In this document: positions 34,379 through 61,758 of the stretch, in pieces
Position numbering within the stretch: the stretch's first letter is position 1
Layout of the letters: each line of letters opens with the position of its first letter
DNA from: an uncultured Rhodobacteraceae bacterium
Lineage (GTDB): Bacteria > Pseudomonadota > Alphaproteobacteria > Rhodobacterales > Rhodobacteraceae
DNA: 64,000 nucleotides
Reading direction: 5' to 3'
Assembly (NCBI GenBank): GCA_943787985.1
Contig: CALSOO010000011.1
Span: 34,444 to 98,443, forward strand
Position numbers and translations under genes: made by a program
The notes under the pieces: model-generated
What the model saw: only the letters and a program-made list of their open reading frames with translations
Database searches by the model: none
Told to the model about the DNA's origin: nothing

Positions 34379-34454
34379 ATCACACTCATATATAATCTTT
34401 GCAACGACAACATTTATTAGGCACAAAAGTTTATAAAGAATTAAATTATCAAGA

Positions 34455-36414: not shown

Positions 36415-36711
36415 ATGGAGCTTAATATATCTAACCCCACAGGGGGGCTTCATCGCTCTGATGATAGCGACGTTATGGACCAAATGAGTAGAGCAATTGA
36501 TTTTGGCATATCAAATGATGAGATGGGGCAGAGGGGTGAGGCATATCATGGGGGCGCCATAGGGTTGATGGCTGCGGCTGCGGCCGGCATTTCTGTGTTA
36601 GCCGCAGGAGCCATGGGTGTTATTGGGGCTATTTTTGGAGTCACTGACGTAACCCATAACACAGTAACGCAAAATGCTCCTAGTGGATGGGTGTCCGATC
36701 TTCATGACTTG
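36415..36711 (+). pseudogene. hypothetical glycine-zipper protein, 3'-truncated by IS fragment
   Basis: The ORF begins at ATG 36415 and contains GAIGLMAAAAAGISVLAAGAMGVIGAIFG. From ~36711 the same ORF just reads the antisense of the truncated IS3-family orfB, so the native 3' end is lost. Confidence 0.3.
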
Positions 36712-37215
36712 CAAGTAGCGGCTGTAGTCATCCAAGATCGTGCTGAGATAATACCAACCCCAGCCGATGATCTTGAAGTAGGTGAAGTCCGTTTGCCACA
36801 TCTCGTTGATTGCCGTGGTTTTGTCTTTGAACTCATCGGCCGCTTTGATCACTACGTAATCCGGCGCAGTGATCAGGTCAGCTGCTTTGAGAATGCGATA
36901 AGCTGATGATCCAGAGATAAAATACCGTTTCTCATCAGTGTATTTGACGGCCAACTCCCGCGTACTCAGCGCTTCATGCTCCAGAGCAAACTCAATGAGT
37001 TCATTGCGGCGGGCATCCGGAATGCGGTTCCAGACTGACCCAGGGCGTGGCGAATGATCCGCCAATGCGTCCAGGCCACCGTCGACATAAAGATCGTACC
37101 ACCGGTAAAACGTGCTACGCGGAATGCATAGCATATCGAGGGCTTGTTTGACTGGCAGGTGCGAGCTCTCAACTGTGCGGATGATCTCAAGCTTTTCAGA
37201 CGCGGGATACCTCAT
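36711..37215 (-). pseudogene. IS3-family transposase OrfB (HTH + rve), 3'-truncated
   Basis: MRYPASEKLEIIRTVESSHLPVKQALDMLCIPRSTFYRWYDLY...WQTDFTYFKIIGWGWYYLSTILDDYSRY matches IS3-family OrfB up to the first DDE Asp region. Homology then stops at ~36711. Confidence 0.7.
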
Positions 37216-37390
37216 TCCCCGTACTCCCCACTTCCTGTCATGCTTTTTTTGAGCAAACGATTTTCAAGGGTCAGATCCGCTACGCATTCCTTCAGCGACA
37301 AAGACTCTGAGCGCAACTCCTTCACTTCTGGTAACGTCGCCTGGCGCGCAGTATCTCCAGACAAACGCCGCTTACCTGCTTCAAGGAATT
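37212..37390 (-). pseudogene. IS3-family OrfA 3' remnant (leucine-zipper end), cut by IS3 insertion/junction at 37391
   Basis: The last ~58 codons of ORF 37212-37877 read ...ATLPEVKELRSESLSLKECVADLTLENRLLKKSMTGSGEYGE. The stop overlaps the orfB ATG (ATGA). Everything upstream of 37391 is antisense of the nested IS. Confidence 0.55.
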
Positions 37391-37453
37391 TGGTCTTATC
37401 GCGGTTTAGTTCCGGTCTCTTTCGAGCAATGTTTGCTATGAAGGAGATAGAGA

Positions 37454-37729
37454 ATGGCAAAGAGATACACAGACGAGTTTCGGCGTGATGCGGTGCGCAT
37501 GGCGACGACCAGTGGCCTAACGCGGCCTCAACTTTCATCGGATTTAGGGGTTGGGCTTTCGACGCTGAACAAATGGGTTCAGCAACATCAACATGACGAT
37601 CTGATGTCAGGACCGCATGAAGACGTTGAAAAGGAAAACACGCGACTTCGCAAAGAAGTCCGTCTGCTGCGCGAGGAGAGGGAAGTGCTAAAAAAGGCGG
37701 CGATCTTCTTTGCAGGCCAAAGCCGGTGA
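37454..37729 (+). CDS. IS3-family transposase OrfA
   Basis: AAGGAG SD, HTH (SGLTRPQLSSDLGVGLSTLNKWV) and a leucine-zipper region. Confidence 0.9.
   Translation: MAKRYTDEFRRDAVRMATTSGLTRPQLSSDLGVGLSTLNKWVQQHQHDDLMSGPHEDVEKENTRLRKEVRLLREEREVLKKAAIFFAGQSR
37690..37696 (+). other. programmed -1 ribosomal frameshift heptamer A_AAA_AAG
   Basis: In the orfA frame the codons are cta AAA AAG gcg. A -1 slip enters the orfB frame, which is open from here. Confidence 0.8.
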
Positions 37730-38583
37730 GATTTGCTTTCATCGATGCCTGGAAAGAAGAATGGTCTCTGGAGTTCCTCTGCCGAATTATGAAGGTCACA
37801 TCACGCGGGTTCCGTGCTTGGCGGGTGCACCCAATGAGCCAGCGACAGCGTGATGATATGGTCCTTCTCGCCCACATCCGTGAGCAGCATAGGCTCAGCC
37901 TGCAAAGCTATGGGCGGCCACGGATGACCGAAGAGTTGCAGGAGCTGGGGCTGAACGTCGGTCACGGGCGTGTTGGCCGTTTGATGCGCGAGAACGGCAT
38001 CAAGGTCATCAGGACCCAGAAATACAAGGCCACAACAGATAGCGACCATACGTTCAACATCGCGCCCAACCTGCTGGATCAGGATTTCACTACGGATGGC
38101 CCGAACCAGAAATGGGCCGGTGATATAAGCTACATCTGGACCAGCGAAGGCTGGCTATATCTGGCTGTCATCCTCGACCTCTACTCTCGCCGCGTCATCG
38201 GCTGGGCTGTCAGCAATCGCATGAAACGGGACTTGGCGATCCGGGCGTTGGACATGGCTGTGGCACTACGGCGACCGCCCGAAGGCTGCATTCACCATAC
38301 GGATCGCGGGTCGCTATACTGTTCCAACGAGTATCAACGACGCTTGTCAAAGCATGGCTTCAAGGTCTCGATGAGCGGCAAGGGTAATTGTTACGACAAT
38401 TCGATGGTTGAAACGTTCTTCAAATCCATCAAGGTTGAGCTGATCTGGCGCAACAAATGGGACACACGTCGTCAGGCAGAAGGTGCGATCTTCCAGTATA
38501 TCAATGGCTTTTATAACCCGCGCCGACGTCACTCATCGCTAGGTGGCAAAAGCCCCTTGGCATTCGAACGAAAGGCCGCATAA
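37726..38583 (+). CDS. IS3-family transposase OrfB (rve integrase core; expressed as OrfAB fusion)
   Basis: DDE core: KWAGDISYIWT, HTDRGSLYCS, CYDNSMVETFFKSIKVE. Confidence 0.9.
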   Translation: MRFAFIDAWKEEWSLEFLCRIMKVTSRGFRAWRVHPMSQRQRDDMVLLAHIREQHRLSLQSYGRPRMTEELQELGLNVGHGRVGRLMRENGIKVIRTQKYKATTDSDHTFNIAPNLLDQDFTTDGPNQKWAGDISYIWTSEGWLYLAVILDLYSRRVIGWAVSNRMKRDLAIRALDMAVALRRPPEGCIHHTDRGSLYCSNEYQRRLSKHGFKVSMSGKGNCYDNSMVETFFKSIKVELIWRNKWDTRRQAEGAIFQYINGFYNPRRRHSSLGGKSPLAFERKAA

Positions 38584-39169: not shown

Positions 39170-40252
39170 TTATCCTTTCAGCTTGAAGGTGCGGGCGACG
39201 ATCTCGCCCCAGGGGCGGGCCGTCGTGGTCCGGCCGGGTTGTGGGTGATGGGCGGCAATCTCGGGTTCGGCCTCGGCTTTTGCCGCCAGAAGGGCCATGC
39301 GGACGTCGTCGAGGCTGGCGTCCTGTTCGAGGAACCGCCCAGCCATCTGCGGCTGGCCTGCAAGGCGGCAGAGATCGACGACAGCGCGAGCATGGGTGAT
39401 CGCCTCGGCGCGGATCGCGGCGGGATCGAGCGGTGCGCCATCCGGAGTCGGGATCGGATCCGAAGGGCTGGGCAAGTCGTCGGTGACACCATGCCCTTCC
39501 GGCTCGACCGGCGCTTCGTCGCTGTCCGCCTCGCCGGTGCTGTCGTCAGGTTCGACATCGCCGTCCACGATACTTTCGGTCTTTGTGCCCGTGTCTTGGC
39601 TAGTATCCTCGGGAACGTGCTCCAGTTCGGGCTGAACACCCTCCGCGCCTGTTGCATCGACAGCCTTGACGAGGTCGGGCGGCGCGTTGCGGAACCGACC
39701 GATGTCGAACCGCGCGGCCATCCTCACAGGGTCCGCCAGCCGATCCGCAAAGCCCGCCGCCACCGCATCACCCGCATCGAACCAGGTTTCGGCCGCCATC
39801 AGCGCTGCGATCTCGTCATCTGGTTTGCCGGATTTGGCGGCATATCCCCGGACGAGGCTGCCCGCGATCTTGTCGAGCGCCTCGGCCATGGCGCGCATGT
39901 CACCCGCCGTGCCCATTGCCAGACCCGACGGATCGTGGATCATCAGGAACGCATTTTCCGGCATGACGATCTCGTCACCCGCCATCGCGACATAGGACGC
40001 GGCAGAGGCGGCAATACCGTCGATCCAGACCGTGACCGTGCCCGCGTGCCGCTTCAGCGCATTGTAGATCGCCACGGCATCAAAGACTGACCCGCCCGGG
40101 CTGTTCAGCCGCAGATCGACCGGCGTCCCGTCGGGCAACGCGCCGAGTTCGGCAAGGAACCCCTTCGCCGAGACCCCATAGGCACCGATCTCGTCATAGA
40201 TCGCCACTTCCGCACCTGTTCCCCGGGCGCGGATCGCATACCAGCTTGTCAT
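39170..40252 (-). CDS. phage head maturation protease (ClpP/S49 type) with scaffold-like C-terminal half
   Basis: Start ATG 40252, 4 nt after the portal stop. LNSPGGSVFDAVAIYNALKRHAGTVTVWIDGIAASAASYVAMAG is the Ser-protease core. The acidic, low-complexity and helical C-terminus is like lambda C/Nu3. Confidence 0.85.
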   Translation of the reverse strand: MTSWYAIRARGTGAEVAIYDEIGAYGVSAKGFLAELGALPDGTPVDLRLNSPGGSVFDAVAIYNALKRHAGTVTVWIDGIAASAASYVAMAGDEIVMPENAFLMIHDPSGLAMGTAGDMRAMAEALDKIAGSLVRGYAAKSGKPDDEIAALMAAETWFDAGDAVAAGFADRLADPVRMAARFDIGRFRNAPPDLVKAVDATGAEGVQPELEHVPEDTSQDTGTKTESIVDGDVEPDDSTGEADSDEAPVEPEGHGVTDDLPSPSDPIPTPDGAPLDPAAIRAEAITHARAVVDLCRLAGQPQMAGRFLEQDASLDDVRMALLAAKAEAEPEIAAHHPQPGRTTTARPWGEIVARTFKLKG

Positions 40253-40256
40253 ATTG

Positions 40257-41780
40257 TCACTCCTGTTCGGTGGCGGGATCGGTGGAGGCGGATCCATCGC
40301 CTGTGTCTTCGCCTGTGCCATCTCCAGGATCAGGCCGCGCGGCGGGCGTTGCTCGCGCGCCCTGTGTCTCGCCGGGGCTCGCGCGGTAGCTCAGCCCCAG
40401 ATCGGCAACGCGTTTGGCATCCGCCGCATTCTCTCGGTCGACTTCTTCGACGTCATAGCCAGTGGCCTCGACCACCTTGCGCCGCGAGGTGATGCCTGCT
40501 TCCATCGCCAGCACTTGCGCCTGGATGTCCTTCAGCGGGTCGACCCAGTCCCAGCGTGGCGGGATCCACTGCACCGGCCGCGCGACGGCGGGATTGCCGA
40601 TATCCAGCGCCCCCGACAATACGGCCGTCTCAAGCCAGCGCCGCCAGATCGGCCGACACAGCTGGTGCGCCATCACCCCATGCTGCAGCTGGCCAATGCG
40701 TCGCCGGAACTCGACCAGCTCTGCCCGCAAGCTCGAATAGTTCGCCTGGCGCACATCGCCGGTGACGAGGTGATAGGGCAGCCCCAGAGAGGCCGAGACC
40801 GACAAGAGCGTCCGGTATTGAAACGCCTCATAGCCACCCCCAACATCTGCGGGGCTCGAGAACTTCACATCCTCGCCCGGCAGCAGCACTTGCATCGTGC
40901 CCGGCTCCAGGCTGGCGATGGCCGCCCCATCGAGATCGGCTTCGGACTCGCCCATCATCGGGTCTTCAGGTGCTGTCTTGGTGATGAAGCCCGCAAACAT
41001 CGCCGCCGTCTTCTTCCGGTCCAGTTCAGCGTCGTCGTACTGGTCCAGCAGAAACAGCCGCACCATGGCCGGGGCCACATGCGGCAGGCCCCGGATTTGC
41101 CCCGCATCAATGGGCCGGTAGATGTGAAGTACATCCTCAGCGGGCACGCGCACCGTCTCCGGTATCACCGCCCCTTGGTCGGTGCTGTCGCCCGGATGGC
41201 GTCGGCGGAAGTGATAGGCCACGCGCCGTCCGATGCCGTCAAATTCAATCCCGCAACGGATGCGATTGCCGTTTCCCGACGTTTCCGTCTTCTCGAAGGG
41301 CAGCATTTCCGACTGCAGGAGCTGCAGTTGCAAAGGCACCAGCAGACCATCCTCAGACCGGCGCGGCCGCAGCCGGACAAAGCATTCGCCCGCCACGAAC
41401 ATCTCGCGTGCGACCATAGCCTGCAGACCGTAGAAGTCGGTCAGACCGTCCGCGTCAGCCTCGTCGGTCCATGCGAGCCAGAGCTGCTGAACACTGTCAC
41501 GCAACACCGCATCTGAGATCAGCGACGACGGCTTGATCCCGTCGCCGACCATGTTCGACGCAAATGCCTCGCAGGCATTGGCGGCATAGCCGTTGGTGAC
41601 GACTAACTCGCGCGACCGCGCCAGCAGGCGGGGGCCGCCCGAGGCGACCAGCGAATTGATGTTCTCTAGCGGCGGGTTCCAGCCCCGCAAGCGCCGCCTT
41701 GCCAGAGCGCCTTCCAGACGCGCGGACACGGCGGCGGGACCGCCGGGGACACGGCGGCGAAAGCGGTCAAACAGGCCCAT
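40257..41780 (-). CDS. phage portal protein, lambda family
   Basis: 507 aa lying between gpW and the protease. Sequence features are typical of lambda gpB-family portals (…GYAANACEAFASNMVGDGIKP…). Confidence 0.9.
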   Translation of the reverse strand: MGLFDRFRRRVPGGPAAVSARLEGALARRRLRGWNPPLENINSLVASGGPRLLARSRELVVTNGYAANACEAFASNMVGDGIKPSSLISDAVLRDSVQQLWLAWTDEADADGLTDFYGLQAMVAREMFVAGECFVRLRPRRSEDGLLVPLQLQLLQSEMLPFEKTETSGNGNRIRCGIEFDGIGRRVAYHFRRRHPGDSTDQGAVIPETVRVPAEDVLHIYRPIDAGQIRGLPHVAPAMVRLFLLDQYDDAELDRKKTAAMFAGFITKTAPEDPMMGESEADLDGAAIASLEPGTMQVLLPGEDVKFSSPADVGGGYEAFQYRTLLSVSASLGLPYHLVTGDVRQANYSSLRAELVEFRRRIGQLQHGVMAHQLCRPIWRRWLETAVLSGALDIGNPAVARPVQWIPPRWDWVDPLKDIQAQVLAMEAGITSRRKVVEATGYDVEEVDRENAADAKRVADLGLSYRASPGETQGARATPAARPDPGDGTGEDTGDGSASTDPATEQE

Positions 41781-41783
41781 GAG

Positions 41784-41999
41784 TCAAAGACCCTTCGTCG
41801 TCGTCACACGCACCTGCCGAACGATCCGTCGTCCCTCGGCAGCCGCAATCTCGCGGTCGAGCGCCTCGATGGCCCGGTCGATTTCCGCCACACTGCGATA
41901 GTCCACCGTCTTTCCGTCGTAGCTGACGCGCGCCACGCCTGAGGAACGCTGAACAGCCAGGGTCTCGCGGCGACTACTGAGTTCCGTCAATGTCGGCAT
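41784..41999 (-). CDS. gpW-family head-tail joining protein
   Basis: 71 aa immediately upstream of the portal gene. LTELSSRRETL...VSYDGKTVDYRSVAEIDRAIEALDREI fits the gpW pattern. Confidence 0.75.
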   Translation of the reverse strand: MPTLTELSSRRETLAVQRSSGVARVSYDGKTVDYRSVAEIDRAIEALDREIAAAEGRRIVRQVRVTTTKGL

Positions 42000-42064
42000 C
42001 TGAATTGACCTGACTTGGGAATATGTTTCATTGAGCCAACCGAATCCCGAGTGAGGGCAAAACC

Positions 42065-42958
42065 ATGACCCCGACCGAAATCATGCGCGATCTCGCGCGC
42101 AACGACATTTTTCCGAAAACCGCCATGGCCGAAGCAGGCACCCGGCGCGAAGAAATGGCGCCAGTCTTCATCGATCTCGTAACCCGCCTCGCACATCAGC
42201 GTATCCCGGCGATGAAAGACGCTGATCTGATGGCTTTTATTCCGATCTTCCACATGCTGGGCGAATGGCAGGATCCTCGTGCCTATCGCCCTTTGGTTCA
42301 GATGCTCCGTCGTCCAACCAAGGTCATCGACCATCTCCTCGGGGACGCTGTCACCGAAACGAGCTTTCGCGTCATCGCCGGAACATTCGACGGTGACCTG
42401 CAGCCCGTGTTCGACGCGATCGAGGACAGGAAGGCTGACGAATTCGCGCGTCTGTCCTTGATGAATGCTCTCGTCTTGATCGCGCAACTGCACCCCGCTG
42501 AACGCCCGGTGATCGAGAATTATTTCCGGACCTTTCGCCAACGCTGTCCCAAGGCACCCGTGGACCTCCTCACTGGCTGGATGGGCGCTATTGCCGCCCT
42601 CGGACTCGAGGATATGTCCGAGGCCGTGCGCGAGGTTTTCGACCAGGGCCTTATCCCGAAAGAGTATTGCGACTTCGGGCATTTCCTTGAGGATCTGGAA
42701 ACCTCCCTCAACGAAGGTGTTTCCCCCGCAAACCGTCGTTACCAGAAAGCCCTGATCACCAATTCCATCGATGAGTTGTCGAAATGGCACTGTTATACCG
42801 ATGAGTTTCTCGCCCAGCAGAAGACCCGCAAAGTTGACAACGCCTTACGCGTGGCCCCCTGGACAGAGGCCCTCACAAAGACACCCGACAAACTTGGCCG
42901 CAACGATCCCTGTCCCTGCGGCAGCGGCAAGAAGTTCAAGAAATGCTGCCTGCACTGA
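42065..42958 (+). CDS. DUF1186-like protein with C-terminal SEC-C metal-binding motif
   Basis: 297 aa on the strand opposite the packaging operon. The C-terminus is [20 protein letters not shown]. The competing antisense ORF 41987-42790 has no motifs. Confidence 0.8.
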
Positions 42959-42996
42959 ACCGGCCCGGCCAACAAGACCCTGCGTTTCCAGCCCCT

Positions 42997-44997
42997 TCAC
43001 CTCATGTAACTTGAGCGCACGGTTCGCCGCTGTGGTCCCGCACGCCGAGAAGCGGGCGTGGTGTTTCCCGCCCCGTCCTCAGCCATGTCCTCCGCCGTGA
43101 TCCCGACCTGTGCTTCCAGATCAGTCCACCGCGCATCGGACCAACGGTCAGCGCCCAATATCCAAGCCGCGGCCCTCGCATAGACCCGTGTATCCAGCGC
43201 CTCGTTGCGTTCGCGCAGCTTCTGCCATTCGAGCCGGGCAAAGCCGCGTTTGGTGCGCACCGTGATCAGTTGTTCGGCCGTGAATTGCTTCAGCCACTCG
43301 CCGTCCGCCCAGTTTGGCAGATGGATGGTTCCGGGCGGGCAAAGATGCCCAGCCTCGATTTCCTCCCGCGTCGGCCGGTCCTGGCGCAAATAGCGATAGG
43401 TCTCGGTCTTGAAGGTCGACGTGGCGACCGTCCAAAGCCGCGCCCCGCGCCGCAGCCTTTTGCCTGCGATGGTCGCGTCCACATAAGTCGGGCCAGTGAC
43501 CGGGCTCGAGCGGTTGAAGCCCTCGACGCCTTTGACCGGAGCCACCTGCGCAAAGCCGACCTGTCGCGACCAGGCATACACGGCACTGGTCTCGTAGCCT
43601 GTGTCGATCGCCAGCCGTGCCAATGTCATGTTTTGACCGGAAGCATGCTCCCAGGTCTGACCGAGCAAATTGGTCAGCTGCTGCCAGCACGCCGGGTCGC
43701 CGGGCCCGCCCTCAATGACCAGGTGATCGATCAGCCAACTCTCCAGCCCGCGGCCCCAGGCCCAGACATCGACCTCGATGCGATCTTTTTGAACGTCCGC
43801 CCCGGCGGTCAGGAACAAGCCCCGCTCTGGAACAGTGCCTCCTTCCCAAGTCTCGCGCTGATCCGCCAAGCGCTGCCAGGCCGGCGCTTCACCGGTTTCT
43901 ACCCATGTCTCGCCGAGGATCGTGTTGCGGAACGCCTTGATCGCTTCATCCGACCCCTGCGCCGCGTCCCATGCCCGCACGATCCGCTCCCAGCTCAGCC
44001 AACCGATCGGCGAATACAGCGCCGAGAGGTGATAGCCTACAGTGCCGGGATCGGCTGCGGTCTCAGTCGCGCGCCATTCGCCTGCCTCCAGCATCGCCGT
44101 CTTGTTGTGTTCGGCGATAGGCGTCTCGCAGCCCTCGCAGTGATATTCAGCAGTCTCCGGCCGCCCCTTTTGCCAACGCAGCCGCTCGAACTTCAGCCAC
44201 TGTTCCTGACCGCAATGCGGACACGGCACGAAATACCGGCGTTGGTCGCTGGCGTCGAACTCGCGCTCGATCCGGCTCAGCCCCCGGATCGTCGGCGTCG
44301 AGACCAGGAACACCTTGCGCCGATGCGCAAATGTCAGCGACCGCGCTTCGGCCAGCGTGACCGGATCGCCTTCGTCGTCAGCGGATGCCGGATAGGCATC
44401 GACCTCGTCGAGGAAGATGTAGCGCGCCGGAGTCGAGCGCAGGCCCACGGCCGAGTTCGCCCCCGTCATGATCAGGATGCCGCCCGCGAATTCCTTCGAC
44501 AGCATGGTGTTGCCCGCGTCGCGCGAACGGGCGGGTTTGACCCGTTCCCGCAGTTCCGGGCTCTCGTCGATCAGCGGGTCGATCCGCTGCCTTGAGTTTC
44601 GTTTCGCCAGTTCCACCGTCGGCTGGACCGCCAGCATCGGGCCCGGTGCCTGGTGGATCGCAAAGCCGATCCAGTTGTTCCAGGCCTCGGTCGCGCCGAC
44701 CTGCGCTGCCTTCATGAAGACGATCCGCTGCGTCGGATCGCCGGGTGAGAGCCTATCCATTATTTCGCCCATGTAGGGCGTGCGCGCCGTGCGATACCGC
44801 CCGGGTTCTGCCGAAGCGCGCCCCGAAAGCATCCGGTGCCGGTCCGCCCATTCCGAGACCGTCAGGTCCGCATCCGGCGTGAGGCCAGCACCCCAGGCGC
44901 GCAGGATTTCCGCAGCGCCGTCAAAATCCAGAATATCGTCGGCATCACCGGAGATCGGGTTTGACCTCGGCAAGATCGTCGAGCTGGGCACGGACAT
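42997..44997 (-). CDS. phage terminase large subunit (GpA family)
   Basis: 666 aa. LTVSEWADRHRMLS...EPGRYRTARTPYMGEIMD...VFMKAAQVGATE (Walker A-like) is typical of lambda gpA-type TerL. Confidence 0.9.
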   Translation of the reverse strand: MSVPSSTILPRSNPISGDADDILDFDGAAEILRAWGAGLTPDADLTVSEWADRHRMLSGRASAEPGRYRTARTPYMGEIMDRLSPGDPTQRIVFMKAAQVGATEAWNNWIGFAIHQAPGPMLAVQPTVELAKRNSRQRIDPLIDESPELRERVKPARSRDAGNTMLSKEFAGGILIMTGANSAVGLRSTPARYIFLDEVDAYPASADDEGDPVTLAEARSLTFAHRRKVFLVSTPTIRGLSRIEREFDASDQRRYFVPCPHCGQEQWLKFERLRWQKGRPETAEYHCEGCETPIAEHNKTAMLEAGEWRATETAADPGTVGYHLSALYSPIGWLSWERIVRAWDAAQGSDEAIKAFRNTILGETWVETGEAPAWQRLADQRETWEGGTVPERGLFLTAGADVQKDRIEVDVWAWGRGLESWLIDHLVIEGGPGDPACWQQLTNLLGQTWEHASGQNMTLARLAIDTGYETSAVYAWSRQVGFAQVAPVKGVEGFNRSSPVTGPTYVDATIAGKRLRRGARLWTVATSTFKTETYRYLRQDRPTREEIEAGHLCPPGTIHLPNWADGEWLKQFTAEQLITVRTKRGFARLEWQKLRERNEALDTRVYARAAAWILGADRWSDARWTDLEAQVGITAEDMAEDGAGNTTPASRRAGPQRRTVRSSYMR

Positions 44998-50433: not shown

Positions 50434-52758
50434 TTACAGTTCCTTCTGACTGACTTTGCGCCCTGAAGCATCTCGCCAGGGGCCCATCCAGCGGGCCATC
50501 CGGTACACCATGGCCTGCCGCGTCGATGATCCTCGCATACCCGTCGTGACGTCTCCGGTTTCGATCAGTGTGAGCAGGATCTCATCACGGTCGCGGGATT
50601 TCAGCCACTGGGAGGCACGCGTGATTTCCGACTTGGTAATCCCGTTCGCTCCTGCTGCGCGGATTACCTCCTTAAGCCGTTTCAGGTGGGCTTCGGTCTC
50701 TGTGTCGGCCACGTGGCGCTCAACTGCCTCCATGGTCTGCCGCGCATAGTGGCGCACGAAGTCGATAGCCCAGTCCGCCACCGAGAGGTCGATCTCGGGT
50801 TTTGCCGGGTCGCGCCCAACCGCTACGATCAGCGCCAGCTTCAACGCGTTTTCACCAATGCGAGCCAGGATCGCTGTGAATGCTGTCCCGGCTGCAGCCC
50901 GCAATTCCTCCGTCAATTCGGCACTCAGTGCCTTGAAACGCGCCCTCGCTTCATCGGTCATGGGCACGATGGTCGGATTTACTGTCGTGTTCTGATCGGC
51001 CGTCTTGCCCGCAAGATTGCCCTTCTGGTGCCCACCCCCAGCGGCCACGCCCTGCAATCCGTGGATCAGTGCTTGCGGTGCCTGGCGGATCCCAACGGCG
51101 ATGTTCTCGTCCGGGTAATCCTCGTCGCTGGGCAGGATCAGAAACCGAGCGAGCGAGCCATCGACCACATTTGCCCCCTGCAGCGCGCCCCAGAAGTGCA
51201 AGGGCGTCGTGGTGCCATAGACGCAAAGACAGGGCTGAACGATGTCGCGCCGTTCGTTCGACCCATCACGGTTGGCGTATTCCGCGCCGAGAAAGATTCC
51301 GCCCGCTGCGGTATAGAGCTCGGTCATGTTGTCGAGGATCTCGGTGATATGACGCGGACTGCGCCGTCGATCGGCTGCCGCCGCCAGGAACATGCCGAAT
51401 TCGTCGATCTGGAACAGGATCGCGGGCTGGCGGTGCAGCGCGGTCAGAAGACCCGCCCCGGAGGCGATCTTGTTGCCACCGAGATGATGCGCCAGCCCCG
51501 CCTCGAAGAAGACCTCGTTGATGATCTCGCGGGCGTGGTTTTTCCCCGACCCGCTGTCGGCGATGCCGACGACATACAGGTTCGAACGCAGGTTGCTTTC
51601 GGTCCGATACTGCCGCCCCATCAGAGCGCCGATCGCACAGAGGCTCGCTCCGAGCGACAAAAGCGGCTGCGGTCGCCGGGCCGTCGACAGCATGTAATCC
51701 GTCAAATCACCCACCAGCCCGTCGGGCATCTCCAGCGTGAACGGCGAGCTCGCCGGGGTTTCGACGCCTTCTTCAGGATTACCATCCAGCCTCGACAACA
51801 GCCCCGCCGCTGGATGCTTGCCGTCGCAGGCCATAGACCCATCAAGCCGCAGCGATGCGTCAGGCTGCCAGCCGCGCTCCATGGCGAGGTGATAGATCGT
51901 ACCAGCCCCGATGCGATCGGGTTTGAAGCTCGTCCACGCCTTGGCGGTGGTCGCGGGTACGTCCTTCGCAGCCTGCGCTGACCAATCCGTGAACAGGTCT
52001 TTACCGGCTTCACCGAGCGCGCCCTTCAGGGCCATACCAACCCGCATCCAGCTGTCGTAGTCGAGTTCCAGGTTGGGCAACCATTCCAACGCCGCCTGGA
52101 TGGCAGGCCTTGTACCGACCTGGTTATGGCTACGCAGGTGTTCTGCCGCAGGCGACATGGCTGAAAACCCTCGCTGCCGTAACGACTCGGGGAGCAGCGC
52201 ATAAGCCTCGTCCAAGAATGCGGCTGCTGTCTCGGTGGTGATTTCTGGCAGATCGGTGATGTCGAGATCAGCCAGCCCTTCCTCGGGCCAGACATAGGGG
52301 GCGCACGTGTCCGGATGATCGGCATAAGCAAGGAACTGCTGGCCGAGGCAGAGCACTTCCAAAGGGTGGTGCTTGATTCCCCGGAACGGCGCGGCCGTGC
52401 GGTAAATCAGCATGCGCTTTGGGGCGCGACCAATGCGCAAGGCGGGCGTATCGCCCAGCCGTTGGCGCGCAAGTTGCTCGATCTGGAGCGCCAATTCAGG
52501 ATCCTCGACGATATCGATGTCGACAGCAGCAACTGCGCCGCCAACGATCCCGATGCCGCACTCGGGCCAAGCCGACCATGTCATCACCTCCACCTCGGTC
52601 GTGGGGCGCTCTGCATGCCGGTTCCATTCTGGATAATCGGTCCAGGCCCCTCGTTGGAACCGCCCCGGCTTCTTGGTGCCCGGGCCAATCGGCAGAATGG
52701 CATAGCCGTTGGTGACCAGCCGCGCGCCGAAACGCGCCATGTAGGATGTCTCGGCCAT
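50434..52758 (-). CDS. phage primase-polymerase (PrimPol N-domain) fused to DUF3987/helicase-like ATPase
   Basis: Start ATG 52758 (MAETSYMARF...) shares one nt with the upstream stop. PrimPol motif AAVDIDI, a central primase-C-like region, and P-loop GIADSGSGKNH. Confidence 0.8.
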   Translation of the reverse strand: MAETSYMARFGARLVTNGYAILPIGPGTKKPGRFQRGAWTDYPEWNRHAERPTTEVEVMTWSAWPECGIGIVGGAVAAVDIDIVEDPELALQIEQLARQRLGDTPALRIGRAPKRMLIYRTAAPFRGIKHHPLEVLCLGQQFLAYADHPDTCAPYVWPEEGLADLDITDLPEITTETAAAFLDEAYALLPESLRQRGFSAMSPAAEHLRSHNQVGTRPAIQAALEWLPNLELDYDSWMRVGMALKGALGEAGKDLFTDWSAQAAKDVPATTAKAWTSFKPDRIGAGTIYHLAMERGWQPDASLRLDGSMACDGKHPAAGLLSRLDGNPEEGVETPASSPFTLEMPDGLVGDLTDYMLSTARRPQPLLSLGASLCAIGALMGRQYRTESNLRSNLYVVGIADSGSGKNHAREIINEVFFEAGLAHHLGGNKIASGAGLLTALHRQPAILFQIDEFGMFLAAAADRRRSPRHITEILDNMTELYTAAGGIFLGAEYANRDGSNERRDIVQPCLCVYGTTTPLHFWGALQGANVVDGSLARFLILPSDEDYPDENIAVGIRQAPQALIHGLQGVAAGGGHQKGNLAGKTADQNTTVNPTIVPMTDEARARFKALSAELTEELRAAAGTAFTAILARIGENALKLALIVAVGRDPAKPEIDLSVADWAIDFVRHYARQTMEAVERHVADTETEAHLKRLKEVIRAAGANGITKSEITRASQWLKSRDRDEILLTLIETGDVTTGMRGSSTRQAMVYRMARWMGPWRDASGRKVSQKEL

Positions 52759-53144
52759 CAGAAGGGCACCTCCGGGCTCATCCCGTCGAGCCGCGTGCGG
52801 TCCTTGGCCGCAAGCTCCCGCAGGTGGTCGCAATATCCGGTGACGACCGCGTCGATGAAGCGGTCCCACTCGGTCTCGGTCAGCGTCGTTAAATCGGATT
52901 TACCTATGCTCTCGAGGTATTCACCGCCTTGTTGGCCGCCGACGCTCATGGCCTCGCTCTCGTTCGGAGTGGGGTCGATCATGCCCTTCCTCCCATGGCA
53001 GATGTCCTGGCAGGCGCGAGAGCAGAGGCGCTTGCGGCTTGCGTCCCTTCGCTGGTCCGAGATCCGGAAGATCGGGTTGAACCAGCCAAAGCCGCGAGGT
53101 TCCCGGTGGCAGACGGCGCAGAGGCCGGGGTGGATTTGGCGCAT
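52758..53144 (-). CDS. DUF6511-like phage protein
   Basis: 128 aa with an N-terminal Cys motif (CAVCHREPRGFGW). Overlaps the 3' end of the helicase ORF by 166 nt in another frame. Confidence 0.5.
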   Translation of the reverse strand: MRQIHPGLCAVCHREPRGFGWFNPIFRISDQRRDASRKRLCSRACQDICHGRKGMIDPTPNESEAMSVGGQQGGEYLESIGKSDLTTLTETEWDRFIDAVVTGYCDHLRELAAKDRTRLDGMSPEVPF

Positions 53145-57352: not shown

Positions 57353-57837
57353 CAGCGCACCTCCTCGCCCAGCAACAGGCGGAACTTGGGCTTGCCGGTC
57401 CGGACCGTGCGCGCGGGTTCAAAACCCTTGCACCAGGACTCCGGCAGTGCAGTGTATTTGCGCTCTGACACCTTCAACGTGGTCTCGATGAACTCGGCCG
57501 GGTCCTCGCCAGCCGATGCGATGTTTTCGGCGATCTGGGCGAGTTTCGCCTGATCCCAATCGATCCGTTTCGCCAAGTCGGCGATCACGGTGACGTCGCC
57601 ATCTTCAAAGCGGATCGTGCCCGTGTCCTTGCCCGCCTCATGACGGCATTCGGCTGCACGTTCGGCGTATTTCAGGGAGATGGCACCATCGAGCCAATCA
57701 GATACGGTTTTGGCCTGGGTGAGCTGCTGATCGGCCGTCTCCTTCAGCATTGCCAGCTGATCAGCGGGCAGTGCGGCGATCTGGCCAACTGGCATGCGGT
57801 GGATATCGGCCAGTGTGATGTGGTTAGAAATTGTCAT
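57352..57837 (-). CDS. hypothetical phage early protein
   Basis: 161-aa ORF whose stop overlaps the downstream start by 1 nt. Confidence 0.5.
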   Translation of the reverse strand: MTISNHITLADIHRMPVGQIAALPADQLAMLKETADQQLTQAKTVSDWLDGAISLKYAERAAECRHEAGKDTGTIRFEDGDVTVIADLAKRIDWDQAKLAQIAENIASAGEDPAEFIETTLKVSERKYTALPESWCKGFEPARTVRTGKPKFRLLLGEEVR

Positions 57838-57848
57838 GTTGGTCCCCC

Positions 57849-58058
57849 TTACGCCGACATCGGGCGGTGGGGCTCGTGGTCCGAGCCGCGGATCTGCTCG
57901 ACCTCGAAAGCCTCGACATCTTCGAGCCGGTAAATCACCCGCCCCCCGAGTTTGATGAATTTCGGGCCTTCACCCGTCCACCGCCAACGCTCCAGCGTGC
58001 GGTGTGAAATGTTCCAGCGAGCCGCCAGCTCGATCTGGGAAAGGTGCCTTAGCGCCAT
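57849..58058 (-). CDS. MerR/excisionase-type helix-turn-helix protein (AlpA-like)
   Basis: LSQIELAARWNISHRTLERWRWTGEGPKFIKLGGRVIYRLEDVEAFE. AAGGAGG SD. First gene after the terminator at 58161-58195. Confidence 0.7.
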   Translation of the reverse strand: MALRHLSQIELAARWNISHRTLERWRWTGEGPKFIKLGGRVIYRLEDVEAFEVEQIRGSDHEPHRPMSA

Positions 58059-58160
58059 GTGAACCTCCTTCGGGTTTTTGCGAACACTTGCGGGATCAAC
58101 ATGGCGGAGGGGGTGGTAGGGCTCAGGAAGGTGTGCGGTAGGGGAACTGGTAGGAGAGCC

Positions 58161-58195
58161 ACAAAAGCAAAAAGCCGCCCCGGAGGACGGCTTTT
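58161..58195 (-). terminator. strong (bidirectional-looking) rho-independent terminator after the unknown two-gene cassette
   Basis: On the minus strand: GCCGTCC-tccg-GGGCGGC followed by TTTTTGCTTTTGT. It also has an A-tract/T-tract on the plus strand. Lies ~25 nt after the stop at 58218. Confidence 0.65.
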
Positions 58196-58217
58196 GTCAT
58201 CGCAAGATTTCCTTGGA

Positions 58218-59153
58218 TCAGGGCTCGATCCAGCAGTTTCCTTCGGCGTACTTTAGAAATGAACGCCAATCGTCACGGCCGCTGAAAACCTTTGCGAAGG
58301 CGTTCGTACCGTCCTTGTAACCGGCTTCAAACAGAACGGCGGCTGTCCGACACTCAGGCGAACCGGACCAGTATGCATCGAACAGCAAGCCCAACAGTTG
58401 CCGCTGTTTGTCGCTACGGAAAGTAAGGGTTTCGTTCCGCAGCCAGACAATGCCGTAGTCATCCGAATGGTCGATCGGGAAACGGCGCTGGACTTGACCC
58501 GGGAACACCCGTGACCGCAGAACCTGCGGCGAGATCGCGAGCTTGCCGGGTCCCATAACGTCTGCCACGCTGATGACGTGATTGCGCTTGTGAGTGGTGA
58601 CCGGAATGCGATCGCCCGGCGTCGACGTCAGGATGATGCGGGCTTCCACCGGAGGCCTGCGCTCGAACAGCCCCTCGACCCTCGCCCAGGCCGCAGGATC
58701 GCCGAGACGCCGCGCAAACCAGACAGGCGCAGGGGTTTTGGCGCCTGCAAGCCTGATGGTGCCAACATCCCAAAGCTGATCCTTGATCAGTGGCTGCGGT
58801 CCCGGCGGCCCCTGTCGCTCGAACGACACCAGCATTTTGGCGAGAGCCAGCCCATAGTCGACGCGATAGGCCGCGATCTCCTGCTCATCGACTTGGATCC
58901 AACGGCCTACGCTGTCGTGGTAGCCATATGACTTCAGCACTGGCGACCAGGTGACCTCGACCGGCTCGTCTTCGTAGTCATCCATCGCGGCAACGACCGA
59001 AACACGCCCGCCAGCAACGAGAAGTTTGGCCTCAAGCAGTATCTCGGTCGCTCGTGGCGAAACCTGGTGCAGCGTCGTGCCCTGAACAGATATGCTGCGG
59101 GCTTCCATGGCCCGCAGCAGAAGGTCGATCGCCCGCTTATTCAAGAACATCAC
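58218..59153 (-). CDS. hypothetical protein, no recognisable domain (cassette gene 2)
   Basis: 311-aa ORF whose start overlaps the upstream ORF by 17 nt. Codon usage is like its neighbours. The antisense ORFs are shorter and motif-free. Confidence 0.6.
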   Translation of the reverse strand: MMFLNKRAIDLLLRAMEARSISVQGTTLHQVSPRATEILLEAKLLVAGGRVSVVAAMDDYEDEPVEVTWSPVLKSYGYHDSVGRWIQVDEQEIAAYRVDYGLALAKMLVSFERQGPPGPQPLIKDQLWDVGTIRLAGAKTPAPVWFARRLGDPAAWARVEGLFERRPPVEARIILTSTPGDRIPVTTHKRNHVISVADVMGPGKLAISPQVLRSRVFPGQVQRRFPIDHSDDYGIVWLRNETLTFRSDKQRQLLGLLFDAYWSGSPECRTAAVLFEAGYKDGTNAFAKVFSGRDDWRSFLKYAEGNCWIEP

Positions 59154-60363
59154 CCTCGTCGGTGTCGTCTTTCAGGATGCCCCAGAGGCGCAGGTATTTC
59201 TCGCCGATCAGGCGTTCCTGTGGCGTCATGTCCTTCAGATTGCAGCCGTGCGGCATGGTCACAGTCAGAGCCAGAGACTTGCCGCGCCCACCTTCGGGGC
59301 CGGGGTGGAACTTGATCGTGAAGCGCGCGCGGGTGATCACCCATTCAGGCACCTCGCCTACAAAACCGGCCCCATGAGTACCGCTGCCGATATCCAACCC
59401 GATGCGGTGTTCTCCCATCTGCCAGATCGTCCGGTCCGCCCCCGACATGGATTCAAGCGTGATGCGTTCTTTCGCATCCCCGAGATCCATCAGGCGCAGT
59501 TCCTTGACCGTCACGCTGGCGATGCCGTCGGCCGGGTCCGTCGGAAAGTCGAAAGGCTGCAGAAGCATGCTCAGATCGTATTCGCGCAGCGGCAACGCTT
59601 GGTGCTCATCAATAGTGATGCCCAGCAGATCCCGGGCCATGAAACGCGTCAGATCCATACGATCCTCGCGGGTCTTGGCCACGACCTCAATCACGCCGGT
59701 CGCTGCCTCATAGGTCAATGCGGCCTCGAACACCGGTTTAACGATCCGGCGCGCCAGCGTGCTGTTGGCATCAAAGCCAAGCGTGTCCTCGGGGCGCCCC
59801 TCGCGATAAACTGCTACCTGGACGAGCTCACACTCTTCCCCATCGAGGATAACCCGGTGGCGGTCGAAGATGTCGACATGGACATTTGGCGTCTCAAACC
59901 GCTCACGGATCGCTGCGGTGAACGCCGCGATCGAGATTGGATCCTTCCGCACTGCAAGATCAGCATCGACTCCAAAACCGCTCCACGACCGGGTCCGGCG
60001 GCGCTCATCATTGTAGCGGACCTCTTCGGCCAGACGGAAACGGTCGGTCTCATTGAGGAAGACCCAGAGCGAGCGATTGTTTGCCCCTTCCAGCGGGTCG
60101 AACACAGCGCGGTTGAGAACCACGTTCTGCAAGGCGTTCTGGCCCGGCTCATCTGCGAGAGCGGCGACCCGGCCTGCATCTAGAATGACCCGCTGTTTTT
60201 CGTCATCGTTCATGTCGTCGACAGCCTTGATCAGGGGCTCGACGACCTCCGACTCGGGCTTGGTCCAATCGACCAGCGCGAGGGAAGTGAATCCGGCAGC
60301 GGTGAAGTAGTCTTGCAGTCGGGTGACGGGTGTTTTGCGGAGGAAGGCGGCGATGGCAGCCAT
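59137..60363 (-). CDS. hypothetical protein, no recognisable domain (cassette gene 1)
   Basis: 408-aa ORF starting at ATG 60363, divergent from the XRE repressor gene. The competing plus-strand ORF 59092-60183 looks like a GC-rich antisense shadow. Confidence 0.6.
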   Translation of the reverse strand: MAAIAAFLRKTPVTRLQDYFTAAGFTSLALVDWTKPESEVVEPLIKAVDDMNDDEKQRVILDAGRVAALADEPGQNALQNVVLNRAVFDPLEGANNRSLWVFLNETDRFRLAEEVRYNDERRRTRSWSGFGVDADLAVRKDPISIAAFTAAIRERFETPNVHVDIFDRHRVILDGEECELVQVAVYREGRPEDTLGFDANSTLARRIVKPVFEAALTYEAATGVIEVVAKTREDRMDLTRFMARDLLGITIDEHQALPLREYDLSMLLQPFDFPTDPADGIASVTVKELRLMDLGDAKERITLESMSGADRTIWQMGEHRIGLDIGSGTHGAGFVGEVPEWVITRARFTIKFHPGPEGGRGKSLALTVTMPHGCNLKDMTPQERLIGEKYLRLWGILKDDTDEGDVLE

Positions 60364-60410
60364 GGGAGCCCTTTCTGGCCAGGAGGAGGAGGGAATCGGT
60401 GCAAAGCGAT

Positions 60411-60487
60411 ACGATTATGTTCGATAAATACCGAACAAACCGCCTCGTCTAATTGCGCGGCACGATTTTGTTCGGCATACCGAACAA
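60411..60487. promoter_or_regulatory. two operator-like repeats in the divergent immunity promoter region
   Basis: ACGATTaTGTTCGataaataCCGAACAA (60411-60438) and ACGATTtTGTTCGGcataCCGAACAA (60462-60487). The second contains a perfect 8+4+8 palindrome, TTGTTCGG-CATA-CCGAACAA. Confidence 0.5.
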
Positions 60488-60521
60488 GCTTCCTGCAACC
60501 AAGGAAAACAAGGATGATACG

Positions 60522-60842
60522 ATGACCACGTCCCTCGGTGCCAAGATCAAGCGCCACCGCCAGGAAAAGGGATACTCCCTAGACAAGCTCGCGGAACTGA
60601 CCGACTCGAGCAAGAGCTACATTTGGGAGTTGGAAAACCGCGACGCACGAAAGCCGTCCGGAGAAAAACTGACACGGATCGCTCAGGCCCTCGAGGTCAC
60701 CACCGATTATCTGCTTGATGAAAGCGAGGAGCCCGGAGACGCGGTTCTAAAGGAGGCATTCTTCCGCAAATTCAGCAAGCTTGCCCCGGACGACCAGGCG
60801 AAGATCAATCAGATGATCGATATGTGGGGAAAGAAGGATTGA
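60522..60842 (+). CDS. XRE-family HTH repressor (cI/ImmR-like)
   Basis: Start ATG 60522. LGAKIKRHRQEKGYSLDKLAELTDSSKSYIWELENRDARKPSGEKLTRIAQALEVTTDYLL is a canonical HTH_3 domain. Confidence 0.85.
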   Translation: MTTSLGAKIKRHRQEKGYSLDKLAELTDSSKSYIWELENRDARKPSGEKLTRIAQALEVTTDYLLDESEEPGDAVLKEAFFRKFSKLAPDDQAKINQMIDMWGKKD

Positions 60843-61758
60843 GCCTGCCCACGACGCCACAGGGTTGGGCAATCCGCCTTACGCAGATCCTGTCGCTGCA
60901 TCAGGCAGCGCATGGGCTACCGCGGTTTCCGATTGATGTGGCGGCGCTGGCGCAGGATTTCTCACGACAGGTGTTTCCGGACGCACCGATCACAATGGTC
61001 GGCGGGCTGGACCTGTCCAAAGGCGTCGAAGGCATGTTGATGCCGCACCCCAACGGTTCTGGTGAGTGGGGTATCATTTACAATGAGACCATCCGTTCGC
61101 CGGGGCGGCGGAACTTCACGTTGGCCCATGAACTGGGCCACTACCTGCTGCACCGCAGACCAATCCCAACGGCCTCGAATGTAGCAACCGCAACATGGCT
61201 GACTGGGATGAGGGCCGGAACAAGATCGAAGGTGAGGCCAATACCTTCGCCTCCTACCTCTTGATGCCGCTCGACGACTTCCGAGCCCAGATCAAGGACC
61301 GCCCCATCGACATCGACGTGATGACCGATCTGGCGGACCGCTATGCCGTATCGCTTACCGCTGCGATTCTGAAATGGATGACCATCACCCAAAAGCGGGC
61401 CATGATCGTCGTCGGAAAGGACGGCTTCATCGACTGGGCATGGTCCAGCGAGCCTTTGATCAAGTCCGGGATCTTCTATGCCGCCCGGCAGAGCGTGATC
61501 GAACTTCCACAGGCCTCTCTCGCCGCACAAGAAGTCGACATGGACACCGGCCGCCATGGCCATCGCCACCCGGCAGGTGTCTGGTTAGGGTCTGAGCCCG
61601 TCCATGAAATGACGGTGTTCTCGCCCCGCAACGACCAGATGACGATCTCGCTGCTGCTTTATCCTGACCGCGCCCCATCCCGCTGGGAGATGGCTGAGCT
61701 GGAAGAAGAGCAGACCATCGATACATTCGACAAATTCATGGATGGTCGCGCAGGCTGA
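60824..61758 (+). pseudogene. ImmA/IrrE-family zinc metallopeptidase, interrupted by a frameshift (~61150-61195)
   Basis: ORF 60824-61264 ends just after the HEXXH motif (LAHELGHYLLH). The conserved continuation ...GLECSNRNMADWDEGRNKIEGEANTFASYLLMP is in another frame (ORF 61195-61758). Confidence 0.75.

Follow-up and report, generated by a model that had tools for sequence, protein, structure and literature searches.

A conserved two-gene module as candidate regulator of the switch in an alphaproteobacterial prophage family

In promoters controlled by class-II activators of the PhoB/OmpR and SARP types, direct repeats with a period of ~11 bp take the place of the -35 element, their end lying ~10 bp ahead of the -10. 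According to the RexA structure paper (PMC11077077), RexA of phage lambda, RdgC, IML3 (CENP-L) and CHL4 (CENP-N) have one common fold and act as dimers that contact DNA without sequence specificity, and RexA does not need RexB to bias the lambda switch. In bacterial Bub operons, CapW/BrxR or CapH+CapP regulators are reported upstream in 39% of cases, CapW/BrxR and CapH being described as transcriptional repressors (bioRxiv 10.1101/2024.11.21.623953). Here we analyse two overlapping genes, A and B, of a prophage lying in a 64-kb stretch of contig CALSOO010000011.1 from an uncultured Rhodobacteraceae bacterium; this whole stretch is called the window. A and B lie between an XRE-type repressor gene and HTH17, the first gene of a replication and recombination operon. 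From the comparison of related loci, which are designated by L numbers, we hold it probable that A-B is a conserved, portable and previously undescribed two-gene regulator of the prophage switch, in which B would be a DNA-binding activator and A its RexA-like partner.

The repeat array before HTH17 and the proteins A and B

Beyond the terminator that closes the A-B unit, four CCT[A/T]CC hexamers are aligned on the coding strand ahead of HTH17 (Table 1). An earlier note on this DNA, made from the letters alone, had seen them as GGTAGG repeats before the early operon, and they are real: this is the sole phased array of its kind in the window, for a chance expectation of 0.32 phased pairs. The four-copy geometry, with spacings of 12/11/11-12 nt, recurs with other motifs beside other types of B. 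The array stands ~56 nt from the ATG of HTH17, a distance that is unchanged when cargo is inserted after B, and an anchor CGCA[AG]G is present 34 nt before this ATG in 165 of 174 loci. A -10-like hexamer follows the end of the array by 9-12 nt, its nATnnT pattern being kept in the aligned examples inspected, and no -35 consensus was evident by inspection where repeat 3 lies. In all module types, direct repeats at ~11-bp phasing would therefore overlap the -35 region and end ~10 bp from the -10-like hexamer. This would be a putative activator-dependent promoter of the HTH17 operon; we propose activation rather than repression because the layout is that of the PhoB/SARP-type activator-dependent promoters.

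The hairpin and T-tract that the earlier note had placed after B were recovered by a terminator scan. This terminator recurs in nearly all relatives with varied stems (GCCGTCC..GGGCGGC, GGCCGCTCgattGAGCGGCC, GGCCGCCCggtGGGCGGC), and it stays with the array beside HTH17 when cargo is inserted after B. Two other readings of the array were considered. Sequestration of the strong HTH17 Shine-Dalgarno sequence (GGAGG) by CCUCC repeats was rejected because loci of the L061 and L063 types have the same Shine-Dalgarno sequence and different repeats, and because the ATCCCC and CACACC motifs are not complementary to the Shine-Dalgarno sequences of their loci. Antitermination by B is unlikely, the array being downstream of the terminator. 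An Rfam scan of 57800-60700 gave only sub-threshold matches, which overlap the terminator hairpin and the B-HTH17 spacer. The terminator scan also flagged, on the minus strand inside the 5' end of B (59093-59119), a hairpin with a 10-bp stem and a T-poor tail. This hairpin is probably due to chance, because it lies in coding sequence and the number of sites found (3) is no higher than that expected from shuffled sequence (2.8).

To relate B to the array, the type of its C-terminal domain was compared with the repeat motif in 197 loci. For the window type (n=144), a CCT[ACT]CC array is found in 141 loci. For the L063 type (n=23) the motif is TCTC[TC]C in 23/23, for the short-B type (n=8) it is [CG]ATCCC in 8/8, and for the L203 type (n=3) TTCCCCC is repeated four times. 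Loci of the L061 and L063 types provide a control for adjacency: their A proteins are 93-98% and their HTH17 proteins 94-100% identical, their B C-terminal domains only 26-30%, and the motif switches. Since domain type and motif co-vary while A and HTH17 stay near-identical, the C-terminal domain of B is the likely sequence-specific binder of the array. HTH17 itself is disfavoured as the binder, being 94-100% identical where the motif switches. We had also considered position 4 of the hexamer (A vs C) as a specificity switch; this was dropped since mixed arrays exist.

The last ~80 residues of B form a separable domain because they also occur alone, in short B-like proteins of 227-251 aa which have only the last 75-95 residues of B in common with it (profile positions ~211/236-308, E 1e-12 to 1e-15). 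The genes of these short proteins sit directly before HTH17. In L195 the short B takes the "cro position", transcribed away from a CI-like repressor; in L205, L206 and L209 it is preceded by an unrelated protein of 269-304 aa. The 275-304-aa partners of short B were examined as possible relatives of A and rejected, no relation to A being found. Full-length B belongs to a family that falls into 375 clusters at 50% identity, with lengths of 300-330 aa in nearly all cases. Scans of 18 and then 113 diverse homologues against family libraries gave nothing consistent, and a 113-sequence profile had no match in Pfam or among PDB sequences. Neither a receiver nor a BTAD domain was detected in B, nor any nuclease, NTPase, pore or transmembrane feature. 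From its model, the C-terminus of B is predicted to be winged-helix-like. The absence of a helix-turn-helix (HTH) motif reported in the earlier note is probably wrong for this part of B, given its predicted fold and the co-variation of its type with the array. The note had otherwise rightly placed neither protein in a family: at E<=1 neither A nor B has a match in Pfam, NCBIfam or PADLOC, and profiles of both gave chance-level matches only against PDB sequences. It was also right that transmembrane segments are absent from both proteins (maximal KD19 hydropathy 1.23 for A and 1.59 for B, vs 2.39 for lambda RexB).

For A, the sole family-library match is PHROG 37634, of "unknown function" (E 6e-73). 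Its AlphaFold2 model (pLDDT 80.1, pTM 0.65) consists of an N-terminal helical domain (~residues 1-122) and an alpha/beta body. The Foldseek comparison that the earlier note had suggested was informative for A: each of the ten best PDB matches is a chain of CENP-N or CENP-L (E 8e-5 to 2e-2, probability 0.47-1.0), CENP-N being first, and lambda RexA (8twq_B) ranks 14th (E 0.063, probability 0.14). In BFVD the second match is a phage "recombination-associated protein" (E 4e-3). With moderate confidence, the model points to the RdgC/RexA/CENP-L/N fold class for A, and not to membership of one of these families. It is the fixed coupling of A to full-length B that suggests for it the role of a partner.

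In one metagenomic contig (L239 5001-6608, protein P0058), a homologue of A breaks off at ~residue 371 and continues in frame into a GmrSD_C (DUF1524) nuclease domain; past XRE and ImmA, this locus has McrBC-like genes (AAA_5, DUF2357). The fusion is a remnant left by rearrangement in a defence locus or else a chimera made in assembly.

Conservation of the pair in prophages and its occurrence elsewhere

Database relatives number 473 for A and 343 for B, all labelled "hypothetical". A scan with one genome per species found relatives of A in 209 species genomes, and A is also present on 202 IMG/VR viral contigs, many of them of 33-47 kb. Gene order was examined in the A-seeded loci with enough flank among 80 of the 209 species genomes and 80 of the 202 IMG/VR contigs. 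In all of them it is SerRec<DUF2924<ImmA<XRE <> A>B>HTH17>p161, where SerRec is a serine recombinase and p161 a 161-aa protein; the co-occurrence survey suggested in the earlier note accordingly found A and B together in every one. A start/stop overlap of A and B similar to that of the window is kept in most relatives. The order holds across Rhodobacterales, Hyphomicrobiales, Caulobacterales, Sphingomonadales and Rhodospirillales and with two different replication modules, and A-B-HTH17 is kept in a distant metagenomic phage. A tblastn search with A and B of 50,697 GenBank phage genomes gave no match, and a literature search on this prophage family found nothing specific.

Relatives seeded with p161 show what else can occupy the slot before HTH17: A+B, a short B-like protein, or a 261-aa protein followed by one of 617 aa, A-B being replaced by other regulator-type modules only. 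The 617-aa protein combines a QueC-like PP-loop domain with an HTH_11 at its C-terminus (L193 2611-5246; also L204, L210, L222, L231, L235 and L237). In these loci GTCACA repeats flank the terminator before HTH17, and the pair looks like an alternative regulator module in the A-B slot.

Variable cargo is found in relatives directly after B, before the terminator and the array (Table 1). It includes AbiEi/AbiEii on the reverse strand (PADLOC E 6e-59 and 1e-93), a 387-aa protein with a SEC-C motif, a CxxCxxCC protein, a secreted protein, a 182-aa unknown protein and, in another lineage, a PemK toxin-antitoxin pair. Since the pair is invariant while variable genes insert after B, A-B appears to be part of the core of the prophage family, the slot for morons and defence genes being adjacent to it.

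Compared with loci whose flanks are near-identical to those of the window (XRE 96-100%, HTH17 94-100%), A is only 76-79% and B 60-62% identical. The dN/dS ratios are ~0.1 for A and ~0.2 for B, and both are therefore under purifying selection. A and B are present as old alleles that recombination swaps between conserved flanks.

Outside the prophage family, the only plasmid match is in Ca. Tenderia electrophaga, where an A-like gene (34% identity) overlaps a B-like gene (hhalign probability 99.5%) and is followed by a phased TTCACACC array. The operon after this array has genes for a multi-ubiquitin protein that matches PDB 9cd2 (E 2.7e-21), for a JAB-like protein and for an E1 with matches to UBA1 (E 7e-18) and BubCD (E 2e-7). 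There are 78 proteins homologous to the Tenderia A. The same five-gene cassette, A-B-Ubl-JAB-E1 (Ubl, ubiquitin-like), is also found in the Oleiphilus messinensis chromosome (L241), as cargo of an integrative and conjugative element (ICE), in Ca. Thiodiazotropha, and in a defence island with type I restriction-modification, Fic and RloB. The operons behind pair and array are unrelated to one another. In five loci (L240, L241, L242, L244 and L247) A-B is followed by Multi_ubiq, JAB and E1 (ThiF). In L243, another defence island, the pair precedes MuF_C, SpoVG and other genes, and an Acanthamoeba endosymbiont has the prophage layout of A-B. The locus is rewired in L246 (5273-10336), from a Magnetococcales metagenome-assembled genome: a 68-aa gene, DUF2924 and a serine recombinase come after A-B, and the other strand carries XRE and ImmA in the same direction as HTH17, p161 and AAA_24.

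In all eight pairs (Tenderia plasmid and seven loci) the homology to A and B extends over the full length, and each pair except that of L246 has a four-copy array, CACACC or CACCCC, with spacings of 12/11/10-12 nt. These gammaproteobacterial-type arrays are followed 9-12 nt downstream by a -10 hexamer (CATAAT, TATACT, CATACT or GATTAT). In the Ubl loci, A-B is in the upstream slot reported for the regulators of Bub operons. The five-gene cassette may be an undescribed regulated variant of the Bub/Bil-type ubiquitin-like systems.

The proposed switch and its alternatives

The earlier note had pointed to a divergent operator region between A and XRE, and two palindromes were found there: O1 (TGTTCGATAaaTACCGAACA, 60418-60437) and O2 (TTGTTCGGcataCCGAACAA, 60468-60487), which have a common half-site TGTTCG and centres 50 bp apart. 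A candidate promoter of A, TTAGAC-16 nt-TATTTA (60452-60425, minus strand), was read by eye and overlaps O1; it was missed by the consensus scan. A-B is on the strand opposite to XRE and divergent from it, and XRE is divergent from A in all loci with enough flank. Because O1 overlaps the only plausible A promoter, A-B is probably repressed in the lysogen, where the note had expected it to be expressed. Of the transcriptional autonomy that the note attributed to the pair, the terminator is confirmed and the promoter region turns out to be shared with the operators of the repressor.

The TGTTCG half-site occurs again at 58081-58086, ~25 nt upstream of the HTH17 start codon in a conserved block CCGCAAGTGTTCG, and a related TTGTTCGCA is found at a similar place upstream of HTH17 in the QueC/HTH_11 loci of the L193 type. 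The copy at 58081-58086 may be a third, weak repressor site or a part of the 5' untranslated region.

With these elements the switch would work as follows. In the lysogen, XRE on the two operators (60418-60487) would keep the A-B promoter off. Upon removal of XRE, normally by ImmA, A and B would be the first leftward genes made, and the transcript would stop at the hairpin (58170-58195). The winged-helix-like domain at the C-terminus of B would then contact the four hexamers (58154-58115) on one face of the DNA, B probably acting there as two dimers or one tetramer. The hexamers would occupy ~-63 to -24 of a promoter having a -10-like element and no evident -35, and B would switch on the HTH17/replication/recombination operon in the manner of PhoB/SARP-type class-II activators. 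A, made in a fixed ratio with B, would most plausibly modulate or gate B or the switch by contacts with DNA or protein, in a RexA-like manner. The module is portable: in gammaproteobacterial plasmids, ICEs and defence islands, the same A, B and array stand before Bub/Bil-type Ubl or toxin operons.

The same module could act with the opposite sign, B on the repeats shutting down the HTH17 operon, either to provide a second layer of immunity or as negative feedback in the style of Cro, with A as co-repressor or anti-repressor. A protein bound to an array that overlaps -35 to -24 could equally block RNA polymerase, the short B of L195 is in the cro position, and the CapW/BrxR and CapH proteins upstream of Bub operons are described as repressors. 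We nevertheless consider repression unlikely: promoters with no evident -35 and a -10-like hexamer at a constant offset are usually those that depend on an activator, an upstream unit isolated by a terminator and feeding a downstream promoter suits a positive cascade, and, if XRE already keeps A-B off, it would be surprising for the first gene to encode a repressor that appears only upon derepression.

More remote from the regulator reading is that of the earlier note, for which A-B was a candidate moron-like defence or exclusion cassette in a rexAB-like position. Here A would sense foreign DNA or replication intermediates and B would be a non-canonical effector of exclusion or abortive infection. 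As to position, the pair is indeed beside the immunity genes and the fold class of A includes RexA; it lies on the strand opposite to the repressor and B is not a membrane protein. Exclusion is also in line with the deep allelic divergence of A-B between conserved flanks, with the hotspot of defence cargo next to the pair and with the presence of gammaproteobacterial homologues in defence islands. It is hardly compatible with a pair that is invariant rather than patchy, is under purifying selection and has no PADLOC match, either in the window or for the L063 and L081 variants, the cargo proper lying after B. B is soluble, has the signature of a site-specific DNA-binding protein and is without nuclease, NTPase, pore or transmembrane features; its C-terminal domain co-varies with the cognate array as would that of a transcription factor, an outcome that the note itself had listed as speaking against defence. 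In defence islands, moreover, the pair always precedes another, self-sufficient-looking operon. We therefore regard an exclusion role as quite unlikely. The survey of prophages and defence islands proposed in the note instead shows A-B mainly as fixed prophage core, the gammaproteobacterial pairs preceding defence-type operons, which suggests a link to defence of another kind.

Phased direct repeats beside the gene of their binder are also typical of iterons and parC-type centromeres, and one homologous pair is on a plasmid. B could then be an iteron-binding replication initiator or a centromere-binding partition protein, the repeats an origin or centromere, and A a DNA clamp or loader. We find this very improbable: upon cargo insertion the array keeps its distance to the downstream operon and not to B, it is followed by a -10-like hexamer, and neither an AT-rich unwinding region nor an NTPase partner is present. 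Pair and array also precede Ubl or toxin operons in chromosomal defence islands and ICE cargo, and the prophage has its own primase-helicase module.

Several observations weigh against A-B as a regulator with B as activator. The fold matches of A have low template-modelling scores (TM-scores, 0.14-0.28), hhalign gives a probability of 0.1% each for A against lambda RexA and E. coli RdgC, i.e. no sequence link, and A is acidic. The B model is weak overall (pLDDT 62.7; 65-82 in the C-terminal part), its Foldseek matches to winged-helix proteins of the OmpR/PhoB/SARP/Crp kind (DrrB, HP1043, AfsR, Crp) are weak (E 0.26-0.97), and the C-terminal domain has no Trans_reg_C-type Pfam match among 113 family members, an hhalign probability of 0.2% against PhoB, and chance-level matches only when its profile alone is compared with PDB chains. 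As for the DNA, hexamer position 4 varies within arrays, which makes the motif definition loose; a sigma-70 consensus scan of 57700-60900 found no promoter; and no phased array was detected after B in L246. Co-variation of regulator and site could come in part from co-transfer of adjacent DNA, though the HTH17 control speaks against it. The dS of A-B, 1.3-1.9 vs 0.1-0.7 in the flanks, is a pattern also seen for arms-race genes. Finally, in the A-B-Ubl-JAB-E1 system A and B could be working parts rather than regulators.

Going beyond the regulator reading, and much more tentatively, A-B may be an unrecognised class of signal-responsive switch. A would read the state of the DNA or of infection and B, a multimeric activator, the four-repeat operator; with this switch, temperate phages would start their early operon, and mobile elements (plasmids, ICEs) and defence islands would turn on Ubl or toxin systems. 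If true, the pair would be a functional counterpart of CapH/CapP and CapW/BrxR, which would also suggest that RexA-like proteins served first in switch control and not in exclusion. For the regulator reading itself, two large orphan families would gain a testable role, and a candidate protein-DNA recognition code emerges, in which five hexamer motifs go with at least five types of C-terminal domain under one 12/11/11 geometry. The analysis also bears on how the switch is built in a very widespread family of temperate phages of Alphaproteobacteria, those of the marine Roseobacter group among them, and locates a real insertion site for defence cargo just after B. If the gammaproteobacterial association holds, A-B would be a third type of regulator for Bub/Bil-like and other defence operons and would give a new angle on RexA/RdgC-fold proteins at genetic switches.

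Locus layout and comparison with described systems

The two overlapping minus-strand open reading frames (ORFs) have the coordinates given in the earlier note (Table 1). Counted from the GTG of B, the overlap with A is 17 nt, as the note had stated; it is 14 nt from the ATG. A database protein, P0121, has 310 aa and is 100% identical to B. The overlap of B with the stop of A suggests translational coupling.

Table 1. Coordinates of the A-B locus in the window and of cited features in related loci
Feature	Position	Strand	Description
Gene A	59137-60363	-	ATG start, 408 aa, acidic, pI 4.9
Gene B	58218-59153	-	GTG start, 311 aa; ATG one codon in (59150), 310 aa; basic, pI 8.5
B C-terminal domain (~residues 232-311)	58221-58460	-	Predicted beta-hairpin, three helices, beta-hairpin
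Intrinsic terminator closing the A-B unit	58161-58195	-	11-bp stem, 4-nt loop, T-tract; terminator scan; hairpin 58195-58170, T-run to 58161
Four phased direct repeats	58115-58154	-	CCTACC / CCTACC / CCTTCC / CCTACC at 58154-58149, 58142-58137, 58131-58126, 58120-58115; start-to-start 12, 11, 11 nt
-10-like hexamer CATGTT (pattern nATnnT)	58098-58103	-	11 nt downstream of repeat 4
HTH_17 (AlpA/Xis-like) gene, HTH17	57849-58058	-	First of the downstream replication/recombination operon; Pfam HTH_17, E 1.6e-8
Divergent control region, two palindromic operators O1 and O2	60364-60521		Inverted-repeat search; 158 bp
XRE-type repressor gene	60522-60842	+	Pfam HTH_3, E 5.9e-11; open from TTG 60453, likely start ATG 60522
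ImmA/IrrE-type metallopeptidase gene, frameshifted	60824-61758	+	ORFs 60824-61264 and 61195-61758, both with Peptidase_M78 matches
Five-gene cassette	L240 5989-10670		A-like, B-like, multi-ubiquitin (possibly with E2), JAB-like, ThiF-type E1
Cargo sites	L062 10641-12295; L069 2904-4573; L009 12310-13473; L018 12182-13174; L041 5388-6206; L245 8110-8705		

Family scans place on the plus strand of the prophage XRE, the ImmA/M78 gene, DUF2924 and a serine recombinase, and on the minus strand HTH_17, p161, AAA_24, DUF669, a PD-(D/E)XK nuclease, a helicase and a primase-polymerase, together with a terminase gpA, a lambda-type portal and a ClpP-type protease. By comparison with the intact genes of Sedimentitalea nanhaiensis DSM 24252 (L059) and L001, ImmA of the window has a 1-bp deletion after ~61154. 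The window prophage may be unable to cleave its own repressor, or the frameshift may be a sequencing error.

The 3' end of the 579-aa ORF called as the helicase is overlapped by a 128-aa ORF (52758-53144, minus strand) that strongly matches DUF6511 (E 2.6e-23). The true helicase probably stops before the end of its ORF, or else the helicase and DUF6511 genes overlap. Just past the ClpP-protease, portal and terminase genes there is an insertion-sequence-type transposase (HTH_32/rve), after which comes an ammonium-transporter/MCP fusion that has the look of a host gene (36598-37877, with 39170-44997 and 32174-34426). Because capsid and tail genes were not identified between these prophage genes and the fusion among the genes classified (those right of 36 kb), and relatives are of 40-47 kb, the prophage copy of the window may be truncated.

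Among described systems, lambda RexA/RexB and the actinophage Rex-like pairs are like A-B in adjoining the immunity repressor, and the predicted fold of A is in the RexA/RdgC/IML3-CHL4 class. Compared with RexA (279 aa), A (408 aa) has an extra N-terminal helical domain and no sequence similarity. RexB is a membrane protein with four transmembrane segments (51 windows above 1.6), whereas B is soluble, basic and of DNA-binding type. Unlike Rex, A-B is on the strand of the lytic direction, is by gene strand not co-transcribed with the repressor, and is invariant in its phage family. RdgC, a ring-shaped, DNA-binding dimer of bacteria associated with recombination, and the eukaryotic CENP-L/N (Iml3/Chl4) give the best structural matches of A (CENP-N, E 8e-5, probability 1.0), and CENP-N also has a helical N-terminal domain ahead of an RdgC-like body. 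A nevertheless differs from them in its TM-scores of 0.14-0.28 and in having no Pfam match to the RdgC family at E<=1.

With CapH+CapP and CapW/BrxR, A-B has in common the position upstream of defence-type (Ubl) operons in plasmids, ICEs and defence islands. CapH/CapP follows the XRE + ImmA logic of prophages, so that both types of module are common to prophage switches and defence operons. The proteins are, however, unrelated: A-B is without XRE HTH, M78 peptidase and WYL domain (the neighbouring XRE and ImmA genes have theirs), and its putative operator is made of four-copy phased direct repeats, not of a palindrome.

The putative target array of B has the repeat geometry of the class-II activators of the PhoB/OmpR and SARP (AfsR) kinds, with four hexamers instead of two or three 7-bp boxes and with an obligatory partner gene. 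As in the cascades of lambda CII, Mu Mor/C and P2 Ogr, the first transcript freed from the repressor would encode the activator of the next promoter. In contrast to these activators, which belong to unrelated families, B is much larger and is paired with A, and the A-B module is found also outside phages.

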